Assembly: GCA_951406725.2 (NCBI GenBank) | Contig: OX597826.1 | Coordinates: forward strand, 66,464,001 to 66,528,000 | Length of the DNA: 64,000 nt | Direction of reading: 5' to 3' | From: Octopus vulgaris | Taxonomy: Eukaryota | Shown: in pieces, positions 7,595-57,391 of the stretch | Layout: each line of letters begins with the position of its first letter | Numbering within the stretch: position 1 is the first letter of the stretch | Position numbers and translations under genes: made by a program | Notes under the pieces: generated by a model | What the model saw: only the letters and a program-made list of their open reading frames with translations | Told to the model about the DNA's origin: nothing | Databases searched by the model: none

Positions 7595-7855
7595 AATAAC
7601 AATGATGTCGACGACCGCTACCGGCGCCGTCACCGCCGCCCTCAAAACCACCACCACCACCACCACCACTACCAATACCAACACCACCACAACTACCACT
7701 ACTATCAATGCCACGCCACTATAGTCCCATCAACAACAACACAAATATTGACACTAACTTCACCACCACCTCCAATACCATCTGCAACTTACTATTACAC
7801 CACCACACCAACACCAAGATCAACACCAATACCATTAAAATTACCACCACCAGCT
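6975..7855. repeat. Compound trinucleotide repeats (GGT, CCA, CTA, CCG)n
   Basis: Seen directly; they explain the poly-P, poly-T and poly-L ORFs. Confidence 0.9.
7038..7143 (-). CDS. Candidate terminal exon of an unidentified gene
   Basis: Acceptor GTTTTTGTGTTTTTTTAG|GTCG. Unique sequence; one frame reads SLSLSLVILAQCCTCATLCCNICAVIFLFTYPDL*. No homology recognised. Confidence 0.25.
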
Positions 7856-7964
7856 GCGGGACCTGAAAACTTGAAATATAATTAGTCATCATACTTAATT
7901 ACATAAGCACACATACACACACACACGCACAAGACAAAAATACTTGGTGTTATATTCACACAAT

Positions 7965-8757
7965 TTTGGTGACACCTCCACAACATCTATAGACCTCCAT
8001 AACATGCACAATACCTTTACAATATATATAGACCCTCATAGCAGTCACAGTACCTCTACAACATATATAGACCCTCATAATAGTCACAGTACCTCTACAA
8101 CATATATAGACCCTCATAATAGTCACAGTACCTCTACAAGATATATAGGCCCTCATAGCAGTCACAATACCTTTACAACATATATAGACCCTCATAGTAG
8201 TCACAGTACCTCTACAACATATATAGACCCTTATAATAGTCACAGTACCTCTACAACATATATAGACCCTCGTAGCTGTCATAGTACATCTACAACATAC
8301 ATAGGCCATCATAGCAGTCACAGTACCTCTATAACATATATAGACCTTCGTAGCAATCAAAGTACCTCTACAACATATATAGACCCTCATAGCATCACAG
8401 TACCTCAACAAGATGTATAGAGCCTCGTAGCAGTCAAAGTACCTCTACAACATATATAGACCCTCATAGCAGCCAAAGTACCCCTATAACATATATAGAC
8501 CCTCATAACCATCACAGTACCTCTACAACATATATCGGCCCTCATAACAGTCACAGTACGTCTACAACACGTATAGACCACCATCTCATTCACAGTACCT
8601 CTACAACATATATAGAGCTCCATAGAAGTCACAGTGCCTCTATAGCATATATAGATATCCACAGCAATCCCAGGACCTCTACAGCATATATAGACCTGCA
8701 TTCCATTCATAGTACCTCTACAACATGTATAGAGCTCCATAGAAGTCACAGTACCTT
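7965..8757. repeat. 39-bp minisatellite, ~20 units
   Basis: Consensus CACAGTACCTCTACAACATATATAGACCCTCATAGCAGT. Confidence 0.95.
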
Positions 8758-8779
8758 GACATTGTTCACAGCATCCCCA

Positions 8780-9345
8780 GAAGTCATTGCAAAGGAAGCA
8801 AAATGGTGTACAAATCTACTTAAAGCAACCACAGCTTCTACATTTGCTCAAGAAAAAGAAACAACTAAATTAATGTACAGATAATATATGGTATATCTAT
8901 CCTTGTACTTTGCCAGTCCTGCTTAGGCCTCAATCACTCCGCAACAAATCACAATAAACTACAAGGATCGAAAAACAATGCCCTTCGAGTCATTAGAGGT
9001 TGCACACGGACCTCACTCACAGACTACCCATGAAATATACAGTGGGCTTTGATTTAAGCACAAGAGCAGCGGTTTTGAAAGGACTTGATCGGAACTTTAT
9101 TTTATCAAACTCGGATGCATGAAAGTAAGGTTGACTTCGGCAGGATTTGAACGTACATATGAAATATAGGATGAAAGCAAACGTAAACCAACTGCATATG
9201 GGAAGAGCCCAGTTTTTTTCCGGTTGCAAACTGCAATTCCCATTCTGCTCTACGACAGCATGAATAAATCAATTCCAAACACATAGAGCCATAGCCAATA
9301 CCTCAGAAGACTACTACATTGTTTCTAAAATCCTCTTTCCTTCAC
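8780..9345 (+). mobile_element. Decayed I/Jockey-group LINE RT C-terminal remnant, interrupted at ~9050-9200
   Basis: LKATTASTFAQEKETTKLMY, YFASPA and KLQGSKNNALRVIRGCTRTS. Confidence 0.6.
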
Positions 9346-18937: not shown

Positions 18938-20057
18938 CAATCTAAGCATAGTGTCTTTTTCTTCGTGTAAGTGTGTGTCGGTGGGTGCCAGTGTATATAC
19001 GGACATTCAAGCCCAATCGCTCTCTTTATTTTGCGGGATGGTGCGGATCATATATCTGTTACGAATCTGCGTCTTTCATTTTAATAACGCAAGTGAATTA
19101 GGAATAAGGACTAAGGAATTTATCTACCAGCATACAATACATCCCACGTGCATATGCTAAGTATATAAATACATATACACAGTCACAGACACACATACAC
19201 ACACTCATACATATCCATATATATGTACGCACACACATATATATAGACGCGAAAAACATGTTTACTACACCAATGTAAGTATACTAGCAGACCGGTGTAT
19301 ATTTACTAACCTATATCTATTAACCTATATTTACTAACCTATGTTTGCTAACCTAAAGGATTGTAATTTCCATATATTTTCGCTTTTGCTTTCTGTTCGG
19401 TGGATGGTGGTTTTAAGGGCGGTATTTGACTTACACCGTGTTTACAAAACAATTTGATGGCAAGATGGTTAAGCATGTCGTATGTAGCAGCATTATACAG
19501 ATAGCTTTCTTCTGTAATCTTTTACTCGTTTAAGTCATTGGACTGCAGCCACGCTAGGGCACCCCTTTTCAATACACTCTACAGGCAATGAACACGAGAG
19601 TTTTAATAAACGAGGTTTTAATAAACTTCGTCTTAATTTAGCTCTTAAAAATAAATAAAAGAGTATTGACGCTTCAGATGCTCGTCATTCATCAGATGAA
19701 AAATTTTAGAGAAATGTAAAGGAAGAGAATGAATGAGAAAAAGTGGTTGGCGAGAAAAAATACGAGTGGGTTACGGACACCTGATGACGTTTGCAAATAA
19801 AACCGATCGAAAGATTATGTAAATGCAAATAGTAAAACATTTTTCAATTTTAATGATGATATTAACGGTCTGAAAAAGTATACATAATCTTATAAACAAT
19901 AAACCATCTCATATATTTTGATATTCAATTCTTGCGGTTTGTTTACGAATTCTTGTATTACATAATCTTTGCTTCTGAATTCGTTTGTTATATTACAGTT
20001 TTAAAATAACGTGTTCTCAAAGTATACAAATCTATATCTTCTTCTCCTTCTCTCACC

Positions 20058-20932: not shown

Positions 20933-21130
20933 CAGTTCTATACTTAAGAGATGAGGAATTATGTACATTATTTACATTCGACGGATATTTGTCTTCATCT
21001 TATTTGTTGTTAACACAACGTTTCGGCTGATATATCCTCCAGCTTTCATCAGGTGTCTCGGGGAAATTTCGAACCTGGGTTCTCATTCCGAAGGTATTTT
21101 TTTTCGATGTTGTTATTATTATTATTATTA

Positions 21131-22516: not shown

Positions 22517-23670
22517 GAGTTGGACAAAATAATGGAAACACCTAGCATCATAGCATCATAATTTTGATTAATATTAGTGTTGCTTGATGTGTTGTGCTAA
22601 AATTGCTGTTTCTTTTCGTATATCATCAGCATAAAGTAATTAAAATTCATTAAGATGACAGTTCTATCGGACTTTCAAAGAGGTCAAATAGTTGGTGCTC
22701 GTATGGCAGGCGCTAGCGTTACGAAAACAGCCGAAATGGTTGGTGCGTCAAGAAGTACTGCCTCGAAAGTAATGACAGCCTTTGAGAAAGGGAAAAAACC
22801 TCCTCGTCGAAACAAAACTCCGGAAGAAAATCAAAACTTTCAGATAGAGACCATCGGACTCTTATGAGAATTGTTAGAAAGGATCACAAAAGTACAGCTC
22901 CCAAAATTACTGCAGAGCTTAATGACCACCTTGAGAACCCAGTTTCCAGAAAAAAATGTTCACGGGGAGCTGCACAAAACCGGATTTCACGGGAGGGCTG
23001 CAATTAGAAAACCACTACTTTCAAAAACAAATGTTGCAGAGCGTTTAGAGTGGAGTAAAAACCTACAGAATTGGTCCCTAGAGCAGTGGAAGAATGTTAT
23101 TTTCAAAAGAAGCATTTTACCCAGACTGCCTTCTTCCAACTGTTAAACATGGAGGAAGATCTGTGATGATCTAGTGGGCTATAGCTTGGAAATCCACCGG
23201 TCCAAGGGTTTTCCTTCATGGCAGAATTAATAGTCAAGAGTATTTAAGCAGTTTATCTGATCAAATTCATCCTATGGTTGCGGAAATGTCTCCGGATGGA
23301 AGCGCAATCTTTCAGGATGATAATGCACCAATTCACACTGCTAAAGTTGTTACTGAATGGCATGAGGAACATTCCAGTGAAACTGAACATCTTATCTGGT
23401 CACCGCTGTCCCCAGATCTCAATATTATTGAACATTTATGGTGCATTTTAAAAAAAAAGGAGTCGGTACCCTCCACCATCATCACTACAAGAACTGGAAA
23501 CTGTTTTAGCTGAAGAATGGACAAAAATTCCTTTGGAAATAATTCAAACTTCGTACGACTCCATACTTCATTGAATTCAAGCTGTAATTACTGCCAAAGC
23601 GGTCCTACCCCATATTAAAATAAATTCGTTTGAAATTTTAAGGTGTTTCCATTATTTTGTCCAACCCCTG
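22514..23670 (+). mobile_element. Tc1-family (DD34E) transposon, decayed
   Basis: ~30-bp TIRs CAGGAGTTGGACAAAATAATGGAAACACCT / AGGTGTTTCCATTATTTTGTCCAACCCCTG with TA flanks. Motifs LSDFQRGQIVG, IFQDDNAPIH and SPDLNIIEHLW; frameshifts and an internal deletion. Confidence 0.93.
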
Positions 23671-27457: not shown

Positions 27458-27979
27458 GGACGTCTGCCATTTCTTTTTATAATATCTTTCTATAATTTTT
27501 ATAACAAACTTTCAACCACATTATATCATACAAATAAATTATTTATACATCCAAATTCTCCATTTTCTTTCTGTCATCATTATTAACAATATATATTACT
27601 ATGATACTCCCTAACATATTGCCGAGACTTTCTCCTTATATGATAGTGATTAACCAGTGCAAGTTTTGGATTATTTAAGGAAATAGTCAACAGGGGTAAG
27701 TAGAGGTTGCTACCGGAAGTCTTCAGCTTTGACCCCTGCACATAGGCAGCCATAAGGCGATTTTGGTTTCTTTGTGTTTCAGCTGTTTTGCTAAACCTTC
27801 ATTCGTCGAAGCCATGAAAGTCCACCGCCTTTAGTCGAACAAATCGACCCCAGGACGTATTCTTTGTAAGCCTAGTACTTATTGTATCGCTCTCTTTTGC
27901 CGAACCGCTAAGTTACATAAACACACCAGCATCGGTTGCAAGCGATGGTGAGGGACAAACACAGACACACAAAAACATA

Positions 27980-28185
27980 CACCGCGTGTGTACCGTTGGC
28001 GATTTTTTCCCGCCGTCTTCCCCTCTCTGGATCTTTCCTTTTCCTATGTTTCTGACGAAGAGCTCCGCTCGAAACGTAAAACCTTCCTTCTTCCCTTCCT
28101 TCCTGAGCGTCCAATAATACTACATTTGTTTCACGTCCTCGCGTTGTTGTGTTTTCTCTTGGTGTTTTCATGTTCGGATTAACTA
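27980..28185 (+). mobile_element. Family D short HHR-bearing element (~200-270 bp, Penelope pLTR/retrozyme-like) nested in SINE B
   Basis: Closely similar copies at 38470-38685 (+), 55635-55900 (+) and 57032-57250 (-). All run into (TA)n, mostly after GGATTAAC. No coding capacity. Confidence 0.7.
28048..28082 (+). ncRNA. Minimal type I hammerhead ribozyme motif (family D, copy 1)
   Basis: GTTT-CTGACGA-A-GAGC-tcc-GCTC-GAAA-CG-TA-AAAC. Stems I and II pair perfectly, core canonical, palindromic ACGT. Confidence 0.75.
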
Positions 28186-28945
28186 TATATATATATATAT
28201 ACGACGGGCTTCTTTCAGTTTCCGTCTACCAACTCCACTCACGAGGTTTTGGTCAGCTCAAGGCTAGAGTAGAAGATACTTGCCCAAGTTGCCACGCAGT
28301 GGGACTGAACCCGGAAACATGTGGTTGGGAAGCCAGCTTCTTACCATACAACCACGCCTGCGCCTATATATATATATATATATATACATATATATATACA
28401 CACACATACACACACGTATATATATATGCATATATGTATGTGTGTCTGTGTGTGCATATGTTTGGATAAGAATACGTACGAGTGGGTGAGTATATGCATG
28501 TATGATTGCATGTATATACGTACGTGTATATATGTAAGTACGCATACTGTTATATCATTATATACGCATGTATGAATGTATGAACGTATGTGTGTGTATA
28601 TGTGTGTAGACATGTATGCACGTGTGTGAATGTGTTTGTGTGTTTATGTATGTATGTATGTATAAGCTTGTATAAATGTGTATGTGTGTGTGCGCGTGTG
28701 TGTATGCGTATGTGTGTGTGTGTGTGTGTGCGTGTGAGTGTGTGTGTGTGTACGTGCGTGCGTGCGTGTCTGTGTGTTTGTCTACTTGGGTGTGTATGTT
28801 TGTACATAATTACCGAAGTGAACAAATTTGCGTCGTCGAATTTAAAACTGATTCTCTTGAAAATTGCTATTTAGGAGAGAGTTACCATTGTCTGGCTACG
28901 TGTGTGTGTGTGTGTCTGTGTATGTGTGTGTGTATGTGTGTGTTT

Positions 28946-32778: not shown

Positions 32779-32955
32779 ATAGTGGTTAGGGCAGCGGACT
32801 CGCGGTCGTAAGAACGCGATTTCGATTCCCAGACCGAGCATTGTGAGTGTTATTGAGCAAAAAACACCTAAGCTCCAATTGGTTCCGGCGGAGGTGGTGG
32901 TAGTGAACCCCGCTGTACTCTTTCACCACAACTTTCTCTCACTCTTTCTTCCTAC
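32779..32955 (+). mobile_element. SINE family C2, 5' part
   Basis: Matches 20770-20932 in reverse. Confidence 0.75.
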
Positions 32956-38348: not shown

Positions 38349-38421
<73 letters not shown>

Positions 38422-38469
38422 ACGCGCAATAGCCCAGTGGTTAGGGCAGCGGTTACGATTCCCAGACCT

Positions 38470-38685
38470 TTCAACATGTGACCTCGTGAGCACCGCCAGC
38501 AATTTTTTTTCCTCTGTCTTCCCTTCTTGAGATCTTTCATTCTCCTTTGTTTCCGACGAAGAGCTCCGATCGAAACGTTAAACCCTCCTTCTTCCCTTCT
38601 TTCCTGAGCGCCCAATAATACTTTATTTGTTCCACGTCCTCGCGTTGCTGTGTTTTTTTTGTGTTTTCATGTTTGGATTAACTAT
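38470..38685 (+). mobile_element. Family D HHR-bearing element
   Basis: Aligns by eye with 27980-28185. Preceded by a truncated tRNA-like head (38420-38468) and bounded by (TA)n. Confidence 0.7.
38549..38583 (+). ncRNA. Hammerhead motif variant (family D, copy 2)
   Basis: GTTT-CCGACGA-A-GAGCtccGATC-GAAACGTT-AAAC. U4C core change and one stem II mismatch. Confidence 0.55.
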
Positions 38686-44304: not shown

Positions 44305-44517
44305 CTCTTTTTACTTATTTCAGTCATTTGACTGCGGCCATGCTGGAGCACCGCCTTTAGTCGAGCAAATCGACCCCGGGACTTATTCTTTTTTGTAAGC
44401 CCAGTACTTATTCTATCGGTCTCTTTTGCCGAACCGCTAAGTGACGGGGACGTAAACACACCAGCATCGGTTGTCAAGCAATGCTAGGGGGACAAACACA
44501 GACACACAAACACATAT

Positions 44518-44550
<33 letters not shown>

Positions 44551-44713
44551 CGACAGGCTTCTTTCAGTTTCCCTCTACCAAATCCACTCACAAGGCATTG
44601 GTCGGCCCGGGGCTATAGCAGAAGACACTTGCCCAAGATGCCACGCAGTGGGACTGAACCCGGAACCATGTGGTTGGTTAGCAAGCTACTTACCACACAG
44701 CCACTCCTGCGCC
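44305..44713 (-). mobile_element. SINE family B, young full copy
   Basis: Near-identical reverse complement of 6315-6740. Confidence 0.9.
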
Positions 44714-45243
44714 TTATATTTATTTTGTAAACAAATATTACAATATTTCATAAGCATTTTATAAGCGTTTTATGTTTCTTTTCTGGAAACTCACCACGTA
44801 CCGGCAGTTGGTGGCTCGCGGACCGGCACCGGTCCGTGAACCACCACTTTAAGTAACATTGCTATATACCATCTTTATCGTTTTTTTTTTTTTGGAGTTA
44901 TTTTTTTCCACAAATTACTTTTCCATGCTCTTTCTCTCCATTGCATAGACTGCCATGAGCGGACGTGATTATTAGCACTTTTCACTTCGTATTATTTCTA
45001 TTTCTCTTACATTCATATTCTCTTTTTTTTTTTGTGTATTTCCAGTGCGATTTCAAAGGCTTTGTTCATATCCTTCTTACCGTTCGACTTTGATCATAAT
45101 GTCTGGGTTATTAAACATTTTCTTTTCTTTTTATGGGCTTTTCATTTTTGTTCACACAATGTTTCTCTATTTCTCATGCTAGACTAGTCAATTGTTTTCC
45201 AGCAGACAGTTTCTTACGTAATTATTATTGTTGTTGTTGTTGT

Positions 45244-55475: not shown

Positions 55476-55590
55476 TTATATACACATAAGAAGGATGACC
55501 ACTAGGTGGACATCCAATATGCTAAATGTAGGCCACATTTAGCATATTAGATGTCCACCTAATTGTCCACCCTCTTATATGTATATCTAT
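55476..55590. repeat. ~55-bp-arm palindrome
   Basis: AGGTGGACATCCAATATGCTAAATGT-aggcc-ACATTTAGCATATTAGATGTCCACCT, with weaker outer pairing. Confidence 0.85.
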
Positions 55591-55591
55591 A

Positions 55592-55634
<43 letters not shown>

Positions 55635-55636
<2 letters not shown>

Positions 55637-55896
55637 CCACTCTCCTGTCTTTGAAAAACCTTTCTTCACCCATTTCCTTCCGGTCTTTCAGAATGTGACC
55701 GCGTGTGTACCGTTGGCAATTTTTTTTCCTCTGTCTTCCCTTCTCTGGATCTTTCCTTCTCCTATGTTTCCGACGAAGAGCTCCGCTCGAAACGTTAAAC
55801 CCTCCTTCTTTCCTTCTTTCCTGAGCGTCCAATAATACTATATTTGTTCCACGTCCTCGCGTTGTTGTGTCTTTTTGTGCTTTCTTGTTTGGATTA

Positions 55897-55900
<4 letters not shown>
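55635..55900 (+). mobile_element. Family D HHR-bearing element (longest copy)
   Basis: Aligns with 27980-28185; (TA)n on both sides. Confidence 0.7.
55766..55800 (+). ncRNA. Hammerhead motif variant (family D, copy 3)
   Basis: GTTT-CCGACGA-A-GAGCtccGCTC-GAAACGTT-AAAC. Confidence 0.6.
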
Positions 55901-55950
<50 letters not shown>

Positions 55951-56069
55951 AGCATGACAGAACTCTTGTGTCACATACCCAACTGGAAACGGTGTTTCCT
56001 GGGGCTAAATAGCAGTAGTATTCTTCTCTTTCCTGGAACTGCCGCATTAAGTTGGCAACAAACCATCGC

Positions 56070-56257
56070 TATACATTATTTACATTATTTAGATTTGACA
56101 GATATTTAACCTCATCTTGTTTGTTGTTAACACAAAGTTTCGGCTGATCTATCCTCCAGCCTTCATCAGGTGTCTTGGGGAAATTTTTGAACCTGGGTTC
56201 TCATTACTAAGGTATTTTTCGATGTTATTATTATTATCATTATTATTATTATCATTA

Positions 56258-56305
<48 letters not shown>
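56070..56305 (-). mobile_element. Family E HHR element, headless copy
   Basis: Matches 20960-21130, followed by (ATT)n. Confidence 0.65.
56129..56174 (-). ncRNA. Minimal type I hammerhead ribozyme motif (family E, copy 2)
   Basis: Minus strand GACAC-CTGATGA-A-GGCTG-gaggatagat-CAGCC-GAAA-CTTT-GTGTT. Same family as 21012-21057, with the stem III G mutated. Confidence 0.7.
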
Positions 56306-56966
56306 CAACATATCCTTTGACTGACACGCTCTCTCTCTCTAACACATACATAAATGTATACAAACGTACATCAAAAACACACGTGTGTGTGCGCGTGCAC
56401 GTGAGAGAGAGAGAAAGAGAGAGGGAGAAAGAGAGAGAGAGAAAGTGGCGAAGAGAGAACATTGCAAATAATGAATGAAATAAAAATGAAATGAAAAAAT
56501 ATAAGCTCGTTAAAAACTATCTTGTACCGAATATTTGAATTTGTGAACTTAGTAAATATTTCTTTCAGTAACGTATTGTAGTTGTTTTCAAATGTTTAAT
56601 GTACGTTTGTATGCGTTTGTAAACCATCACTATATATATATATATCTTCTTATGTTAAATAGACATGTGTGTGTGTGTATTCGCTTTTCACGCTAAAACG
56701 GCTGCGCAAATTGCTTCCGTATTTGGGATTGCATGATTAATTTGACCTCGGATACATCATAGGGTCTTCAGTTTATTTTTTTAATTAAAAATAAATAATA
56801 TTGTTTTATATTTATGATTCACTTCTTTAAAAAGGTTTCTCAATGTCAGCTTCCGATATTGACGTAGCAGAGGCGAAATTTTCCATTTTCATTTTTCAAG
56901 TTTCTCACTCTTTATTTTAATGTTTTCAAGTTTTAACTCGCTATTTGCAAACATACATACATACAT

Positions 56967-57031
<65 letters not shown>

Positions 57032-57035
<4 letters not shown>

Positions 57036-57250
57036 AACAAGAAAACACAAAAAACACAACAACGCGAGGACGTGGAACAAATATAGTATTATTGCACGCT
57101 CAGGAAAGAAGGAAAGAAGGAGGGTTTAACGTTATATATATATATATAACGTTTCGAGCGGAGCTCTTCGTCGGAAACATAGGAGAAGGAAAGATCCAGA
57201 GAAAGGAAGACAGAGGAAAAAAATCGCCAACGGTACACACGAGGTCACAT
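57032..57250 (-). mobile_element. Family D HHR-bearing element
   Basis: Reverse complement of family D; (TA)n on both sides. Confidence 0.7.
57148..57178 (-). ncRNA. Hammerhead motif variant (family D, copy 4), interrupted at the cleavage site
   Basis: Minus strand GTTT-CCGACGA-A-GAGCtccGCTC-GAAACGTT, followed by (AT)n and a second AACGTTAAAC. Confidence 0.55.
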
Positions 57251-57260
57251 ATATATATAT

Positions 57261-57391
<131 letters not shown>

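Follow-up and report, generated by a model that had tools for sequence, protein, structure and literature searches.

The hammerhead-bearing repeat described here exists as two amplified subfamilies that differ at position 4 of the ribozyme core, U4 and C4, and C4, the U4C core variant, is the majority form. The dispersed copies belong to one abundant repeat, and on balance we regard them as 3' ends of a Penelope-like element (PLE) that were truncated at 5', or as a short non-autonomous derivative of one, in which a U4C change predicted to weaken cleavage probably multiplied passively from master copies. No earlier description of a retroelement family with U4C as its majority allele came to light, and this appears to be what is new here, as U4C itself is already known from a viroid; the survey of Lunse et al. 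(2017), the Terminon paper and some supplements could already contain the family.

The window, the whole stretch of 64 kb that was analysed, has about 36% G+C and is dense in microsatellites and in SINE-, LINE- and mariner-like fragments. A blastn search of it with copies 1 and 3 returned four related copies and no fifth, with E values of 1e-73 to 3e-80 for the other copies when the 55635 copy was the query:

27981..28183, forward strand: copy 1, 203 nt, U4 subfamily
38468..38682, forward strand: copy 2, 215 nt, divergent C4 subfamily
55635..55898, forward strand: copy 3, 264 nt, C4, longest 5' extent
57033..57250, reverse strand: copy 4, C4, about 7 nt short at the 3' end

The initial annotation had placed four related copies at 27980, 38470, 55635 and 57032, and these were found again, 85 to 97.5% alike. 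It had also called them young, which suits copies 3 and 4 (97.5% identity, the insertion not counted) but not the other five pairs, at 85-91% with a lowest value of 85.1%. Copy 2 forms a C4 lineage of its own, 10% apart from copies 3 and 4. Three of the four copies end at the identical base (...GGATTAAC), and the remaining one is about 7 nt shorter. A (TA)n tract directly abuts this common 3' end in two copies and follows an extra TT in a third, and (TA)n lies on either side of copies 3 and 4. The 5' ends correspond to reference positions 55635, 55685, 55693 and 55698, a spread of up to 63 nt. Both halves of the earlier description, 3' ends at or near one position beside (TA)n and variable 5' extents, are therefore seen across the four copies, and this combination fits retrotransposition, as had been proposed. 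All four copies are single, and none is preceded by its own 3' end. Copy 1 lies inside a different abundant repeat (27823-27980 and 28184-28365), in the CA/TA tract within it; the uninterrupted form of that repeat is seen at 44349-44714, and the window holds several such uninterrupted copies. The 5' end of copy 2 is fused to a piece of a further repeat:

38420..38467, forward strand: head of another repeat, cut short and lacking 22 internal nt that the copy near 32781 has

We take this head to resemble that of a tRNA-derived SINE; ARAGORN found no tRNA. Together with copy 2, the whole being flanked by (TA)n, it is possibly a template-switch chimera. Just upstream of copy 3 lies an imperfect, MITE-like inverted repeat of about 109 nt (84%; 55478-55586). 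The window also contains a Tc1/mariner transposase remnant on the forward strand at 22868-23510, in two frames (Pfam HTH_Tnp_Tc3_2 and DDE_3), and a tandem array with a 39-nt period at 7851-8851.

The motif lies about 100 nt from the 3' end of the element. It comprises 35 nt, namely stem I GUUU, the core C(U/C)GACGA, a bulged A, stem II GAGC-UCC-GCUC, GAAA, CG, U, H17 and stem I AAAC, and its positions were numbered by analogy to PMC4209133. The features are as follows:

28048..28082, forward strand: copy 1 motif, intact, CUGACGA core, A17; predicted cleavage after 28078
38549..38583, forward strand: copy 2 motif, C4; stem II mismatch, C>A at 38569
55766..55800, forward strand: copy 3 motif, C4, stems intact
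55766-69/55797-800, 55770-76 and 55777, forward strand: stem I, core and bulged A of copy 3
55778-81/55785-88, 55789-92 and 55793-94, forward strand: stem II, GAAA and CG palindrome of copy 3
55795 and 55796, forward strand: U16.1 and U17 of copy 3
57124..57178, reverse strand: copy 4 motif, C4; 55 nt owing to a 20-nt insertion in stem III

At position 4, copy 1 has T (28053) and the three other copies have C (38554, 55771 and 57173), which agrees with the one canonical CUGACGA copy and three CCGACGA copies reported earlier. Position 17 is A in the U4 copy and U in the others. The conserved boxes CUGANGA, GAAA and UH are all present in the U4 copy (28048-28082), so that by sequence it can be classed with the minimal hammerheads (min-HHRs), and the C4 copies are to be classed as variants, not as canonical members. 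All four copies have the unpaired nucleotide between A9 and 10.1 and the G10.1-C11.1 pair. In three copies positions 15.2-16.2 are the palindromic CG, with next to no stem III; in copy 4 the palindrome is expanded. Pairing over 4 bp is possible in each of helices I and II in three of the four copies, and copy 2 has one mismatch, a change that makes up less than 5% of contig depth in the family. This anatomy is that of a minimal hammerhead of the Penelope type and supports the original reading of the motif. The statement that all copies share a 35-nt motif with 4-bp stems applies to two of them, but not to copy 2, with its stem II mismatch, or to copy 4, with its motif of 55 nt. A min-HHR descriptor matched twice in the window and never in 40 Markov-1 resamples; it does not match copies 2 and 4 because of the stem II C>A change and the 20-nt insertion, respectively. 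Rfam run over the whole window at the gathering score gave 0 matches, so that it missed all four copies, and in E-value mode over 55600-57300 it gave 42 weak matches with no hammerhead among them. The opposite strand of the element holds no hammerhead core. The window contains a second minimal-hammerhead family, in which position 4 is U:

21010-21058 and 56127-56175, reverse strand: CUGAUGA core, 5-6-bp stem II, 88% alike, beside (ATT)n

The copy of this second family at 56169 lacks the CG palindrome. Two weaker single hammerhead-like cores, both on the forward strand (224-266 and 19781-19835), are probably decayed members of other families.

The initial annotation had argued from three copies out of four that the C4 variant was amplified and did not arise by random decay. 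This argument was weak, as it overlooked that C4-G5 is a CpG: the T could derive from C, and the four window copies by themselves cannot settle the matter. The conclusion holds nevertheless, based on family-level data. Of 24 public runs listed as candidates, 18 contained half or more of 21 words, under four organism labels. Logan contigs of runs X2, X9 and X8 were aligned to copy 3 (55636-55892) at 80% likeness, giving 14,037, 6,416 and 5,719 contig pieces, respectively, of which 54-60% were at least 95% alike the reference. From the four copies within 64 kb and the thousands of different contig pieces we infer that the family is very large. T at position 4 made up 32.0, 24.0 and 26.9% of the summed word depth in X2, X9 and X8, in more than 100 contigs each, and A and G were each below 5%, which leaves C with about 60-76% of contig depth; these percentages are contig depth and not copy counts, and the reference was a C4 copy. 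The wider count of U4 against C4 that the annotation had proposed thus gives C4 as the majority in all three contig sets, which come from three studies and carry three organism labels. Six changes at other CpG sites reached only 2.0-7.1%, and all other CpG sites stayed below 5%, as did the G of the C4-G5 CpG. Moreover, the U4 copy carries five further family-level alleles, at 55727, 55732, 55759, 55811 and 55817. A T level of 24-32%, against at most 7.1% at other CpG sites, together with these linked alleles indicates that both forms are subfamilies and that C4 is the larger one. Run X24, a raw-read run, gave 2 reads on 55636-55892 among 12.9 million (1,934 million letters), neither of them informative for the U4/C4 ratio; it appears poor in this family although its species label matches that of run X1, one of the runs richest in the words. 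Run X8 was discarded as evidence of transcription, as its RNA nature is only a guess and its variant profile equals that of X9. The direction of change, from U to C, would follow from the outgroups, which are the published min-HHRs, 56 of 56 with U4, and the second family in the window. The U4 form could be a reverted master.

Conservation of the motif relative to its flanks was examined with site 55718 excluded from all three variability counts, since the reference is private there. In X2, sites varying by at least 5% numbered 5 of 35 in the motif and 16 of 129 in the flanks (p=0.78), and sites varying by at least 10% numbered 2 of 35 and 10 of 129 (p=1.0). Without CpG changes, which also drops position 4, the counts were 1 of 35 and 13 of 129 (p=0.31). 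The initial annotation would have given up its proposal if neither variant cleaved and the stems were no more conserved than the flanks; on the conservation half of this the outcome is neutral, with p values of 0.3-1.0 at low power. No compensatory double changes in the stems were seen in the contigs of the three runs or in the four window copies. Fixed core positions other than 4 varied by less than 5%, and the common stem I change, 55800 C>T at 9-16%, retains a G.U pair. The depth peak on the motif was 1.04, 1.30 and 1.56 times the 3' plateau in the three contig sets, and indels in the pyrimidine-rich flanks could be another source of it. Taken together, the low variation of these core positions, the retained G.U pair and the depth peak hint at constraint.

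In the predicted folds, the monomer prefers an off-state, at -7.1 or -7.4 kcal/mol compared to -4.6 kcal/mol for stems I and II, in which the 5' strand of stem I pairs with GAAAC; in none of the four whole copies does the pair probability of stem I exceed 0.06. As the motif lacks a stem III, it would need a partner through the ACGU palindrome for cleavage, in line with the dimer model of minimal hammerheads summarised in PMC6765202. When dimers were folded by a method that scores no crossed double-hammerhead, a non-catalytic duplex came out as the minimum. The U4C change is expected to impair cleavage. When all mutants of a type III hammerhead were scanned, activity was low for every single change in the CUGA turn (PMC9901934). 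In the viroid, U4C is stated to lower the activity in vitro considerably, yet the activity in vivo was sufficient for infectivity (PMC3088659, citing Ambros and Flores 1998). The available parts of PMC3884650, PMC3907566, PMC6155905 and PMC10085705 add nothing more on U4C. All four copies include both sides of the predicted cleavage site, and the family depth is high on both sides, so the templates were likely uncut and amplification is no proof of ribozyme activity. The function that the initial annotation implied for the C4 variant therefore does not follow from its amplification. Just 3' of the cleavage site the depth drops by 16-28% and recovers by 55834. Loose ends at 55816 point to indels behind this dip, and some copies may end at the cut.

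Copy 4 differs from the others in its stem III, where its 20-nt insertion consists of (AT)7 with a duplicated AACGTT:

57128..57153: perfect palindrome of 26 nt, AACGTT (AT)7 AACGTT, within the copy 4 motif

Its stem III is predicted to have 10-11 bp with a probability of 0.98-1.0, and such a long stem III is predicted to mimic the dimer in cis. In the predicted fold of copy 4, A14 pairs with U17 and stem I is open, and the full hammerhead fold has a probability of 0.002. No insertion of this type reached 5% in the contigs, and among the rows listed no contig insertion or loose end resembles it, so the insertion looks like a one-off. The 5' piece of copy 4 ends at the predicted cut or one base past it; we did not keep this as a trace of cleavage, since a 6-7-nt duplication around the (AT)n insertion explains it equally well.

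How such copies could have arisen from a PLE can be outlined. A parent transcript, itself postulated, would carry the motif at its observed place about 100 nt from the 3' end, and the reverse transcriptase (RT) and endonuclease of the parent would prime at (TA)n from the fixed 3' end and mostly stop some 200 nt in. The motif, predicted to be off as a monomer, would have to dimerise via the ACGU palindrome in order to cut, a requirement taken from the literature. If the template was uncut when it was copied, the copies would retain both sides of the cleavage site, as they are observed to do. Since the production of such stubs needs no cleavage, U4C in masters could spread unselected to most of the family, the majority being observed and the neutrality presumed. 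Summed depth at 55663-71 lies 224-411 times below that of the motif, and the steepest 5' fall is at 55672-55707, although contig edges exaggerate such ramps. This 5' fall and the fixed 3' end at (TA)n fit target-primed reverse transcription with 5' truncation. Microsatellite targeting and a hammerhead near the 3' end are PLE traits (PMC8557442), and the fixed 3' end, the 5' truncation and the microsatellite target are all found here.

The initial annotation had also suggested a search for tandem arrays or a parent PLE, and this gave a mixed result. A head-to-tail joint, from the 3' end to the common 5' start, occurs directly in one X2 contig and in similar form in one X8 contig (55692-55892), implying units of about 204 nt; these are one each among the 14,037 and 5,719 pieces listed, and tandems spaced by (TA)n would escape this listing. 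The window copies are single, as described above, and no parent frame was found: none of the 15 window frames scanned against Pfam (168 frames listed) is an RT or GIY-YIG frame linked to the element, degenerate motif scans gave 0 matches in viral, 0 in genome and 0 in metagenome contigs, and two protein searches for a parent were empty or gave chance matches. With no parent RT/GIY-YIG element found, the PLE origin rests on the motif and the end structure. Two other candidates were rejected. The 25 metagenome loci that match a 19-base pattern are due to chance, as in none of them does the likeness run on into the motif, and no match exceeds 24 nt. For an open frame of 66 codons that crosses the element, neither a Pfam family nor a homologue was found, and the differing poly-T lengths of the copies likewise speak against coding.

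Passive spread of U4C is to be weighed against readings in which the ribozyme matters. It is conceivable, if rather unlikely, that C4 is a tolerated working core that cleaves fast enough in tandem transcripts or dimers and is under purifying selection in both subfamilies. The viroid U4C variant remained infectious (PMC3088659), C4 is present in two subfamilies 10% apart, and the low variation of the other core positions, the wobble pair at 55800, the depth peak and the 1 of 35 against 13 of 129 non-CpG variable sites all point in this direction. The last difference is, however, not significant (p=0.31), compensatory changes were not seen, min-HHRs have none of the loop-loop contacts thought to rescue variant cores, and even min-HHR dimers with a canonical core cleave weakly (PMC4209133). 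The opposite idea, that U4C was favoured because it turned the ribozyme down, uncut RNA being the better template, would explain how attenuated masters out-replicated U4 and came to supply about 70% of the family. The C4 majority in the three contig sets, the copies that span the cleavage site and the fact that the closest window pair (97.5%) is C4 are in keeping with it, and Naiad PLEs without a hammerhead proliferate well, so that the absence of the ribozyme may even help (PMC8557442). We nevertheless consider it distinctly unlikely: one or two lucky masters would leave the same pattern, a U4 monomer is already predicted to be off, so that little would be gained, and U4 could be a reversion, as the family tree is unrooted.

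The element could also be a non-LTR retrozyme, a unit of about 204 nt that spread through circular RNA from cleaved tandems and of which the dispersed copies are monomers. The joints in one X2 and one X8 contig and the steepest 5' depth fall at 55672-55707 would suit such a unit, and monomer-rich families derived from pLTRs have been described (bioRxiv 10.64898/2026.07.22.740005). This is highly improbable, as no window copy stands in a tandem or follows a 3' end of its own, two copies reach 5' beyond the unit into further family sequence, the joint contigs are one each among the thousands of pieces listed, and classical retrozymes carry canonical type I hammerheads (PMC7229834). We give very little credence to an ancestral C4, with U4 arising by CpG decay or from a reverted master, or to a SINE of non-PLE origin with a vestigial likeness to a hammerhead. 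C4-G5 is indeed a CpG, C4 occurs in two divergent subfamilies, and the searches made did not find the parent element. Copy-by-copy decay is excluded, though, by a T level far over the CpG background and by the alleles linked to U4, and U4 is found in all 56 published min-HHRs and in the second window family.

The role of the hammerhead in endonuclease-bearing PLEs has been called unclear (PMC8557442). A large family in which some copies have a canonical and others a core-mutant ribozyme provides matched variants for assays of cleavage and mobility, and searches that demand CUGANGA would overlook most copies of this octopus family. If C4 is merely a passenger, as in the truncated-PLE origin that we prefer, this is an ordinary instance of motif decay in a stub that spread successfully. 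If turned-down U4C masters did win, the presence of U4 and C4 in one genome would amount to a controlled experiment of nature on whether Penelope-type retrotransposition is helped or hindered by cleavage, and a microsatellite insertion would have made the copy at 57124-57178 a natural version competent as a monomer.

The octopus motif shares with the min-HHRs of metazoan PLEs (PMC4209133) the bulge after A9, the G10.1-C11.1 pair, the CG palindrome in place of stem III, the short helix I, the U-rich 5' flank and the common U17; those min-HHRs too are mostly dispersed single motifs, thought to derive from truncated PLEs. By eye, the most similar of the 56 published motifs is that of Acropora digitifera, from a Neptune PLE, with which it has in common the CUGACGAA core, a 4-bp stem II and the GCUC 3' strand (PMC4209133). 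All 56 have U4, in a search whose descriptor was biased to the conserved boxes, whereas C4 is the majority here; the core variant described in that paper, which also reports the weak dimer cleavage of min-HHRs, is U3-A8 (PMC4209133). In the Schistosoma families helix II has 7-8 bp instead of 4 bp (PMC4209133). For the octopus family no linked RT-endonuclease ORF was found among the window frames scanned. Hydra-clade PLEs, including Hydra-1_Obim, likewise insert at (TA)n, and Hydra-1_Obim has its hammerhead about 100 nt short of the fixed 3' end, being listed at position 2403 in a length of 2507 nt (PMC8557442). Its hammerhead is a different sequence, and Hydra hammerheads have a 3-4-bp stem III and ctga cores, whereas the octopus motif has the ACGU palindrome alone (PMC8557442). 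The same paper lists cephalopod Naiad and Hydra elements that target (TA)n, and its hammerhead table has ctga cores in all 34 rows, none matching the octopus motif; seven short words of the octopus element had no match in the supplement, and a broader 8-letter word matched two unrelated places (PMC8557442). Penelope families were recently active in Octopus vulgaris, according to a paper whose main text, as far as available, does not mention ribozymes (PMC13282606). Non-LTR retrozymes resemble the octopus element as PLE-related, non-coding, hammerhead-bearing units of 200-300 nt in which monomers can dominate (PMC7229834; 10.64898/2026.07.22.740005). They are defined by tandem units, with canonical hammerheads and circular RNA in PMC7229834, whereas the octopus copies are single and their motif is minimal. 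The viroid U4C variant carries the same core substitution as the octopus C4 copies; in the viroid it is a rare natural variant thought to be rescued by tertiary contacts (PMC3088659), whereas in the octopus it is the majority allele, in a minimal motif without such contacts.
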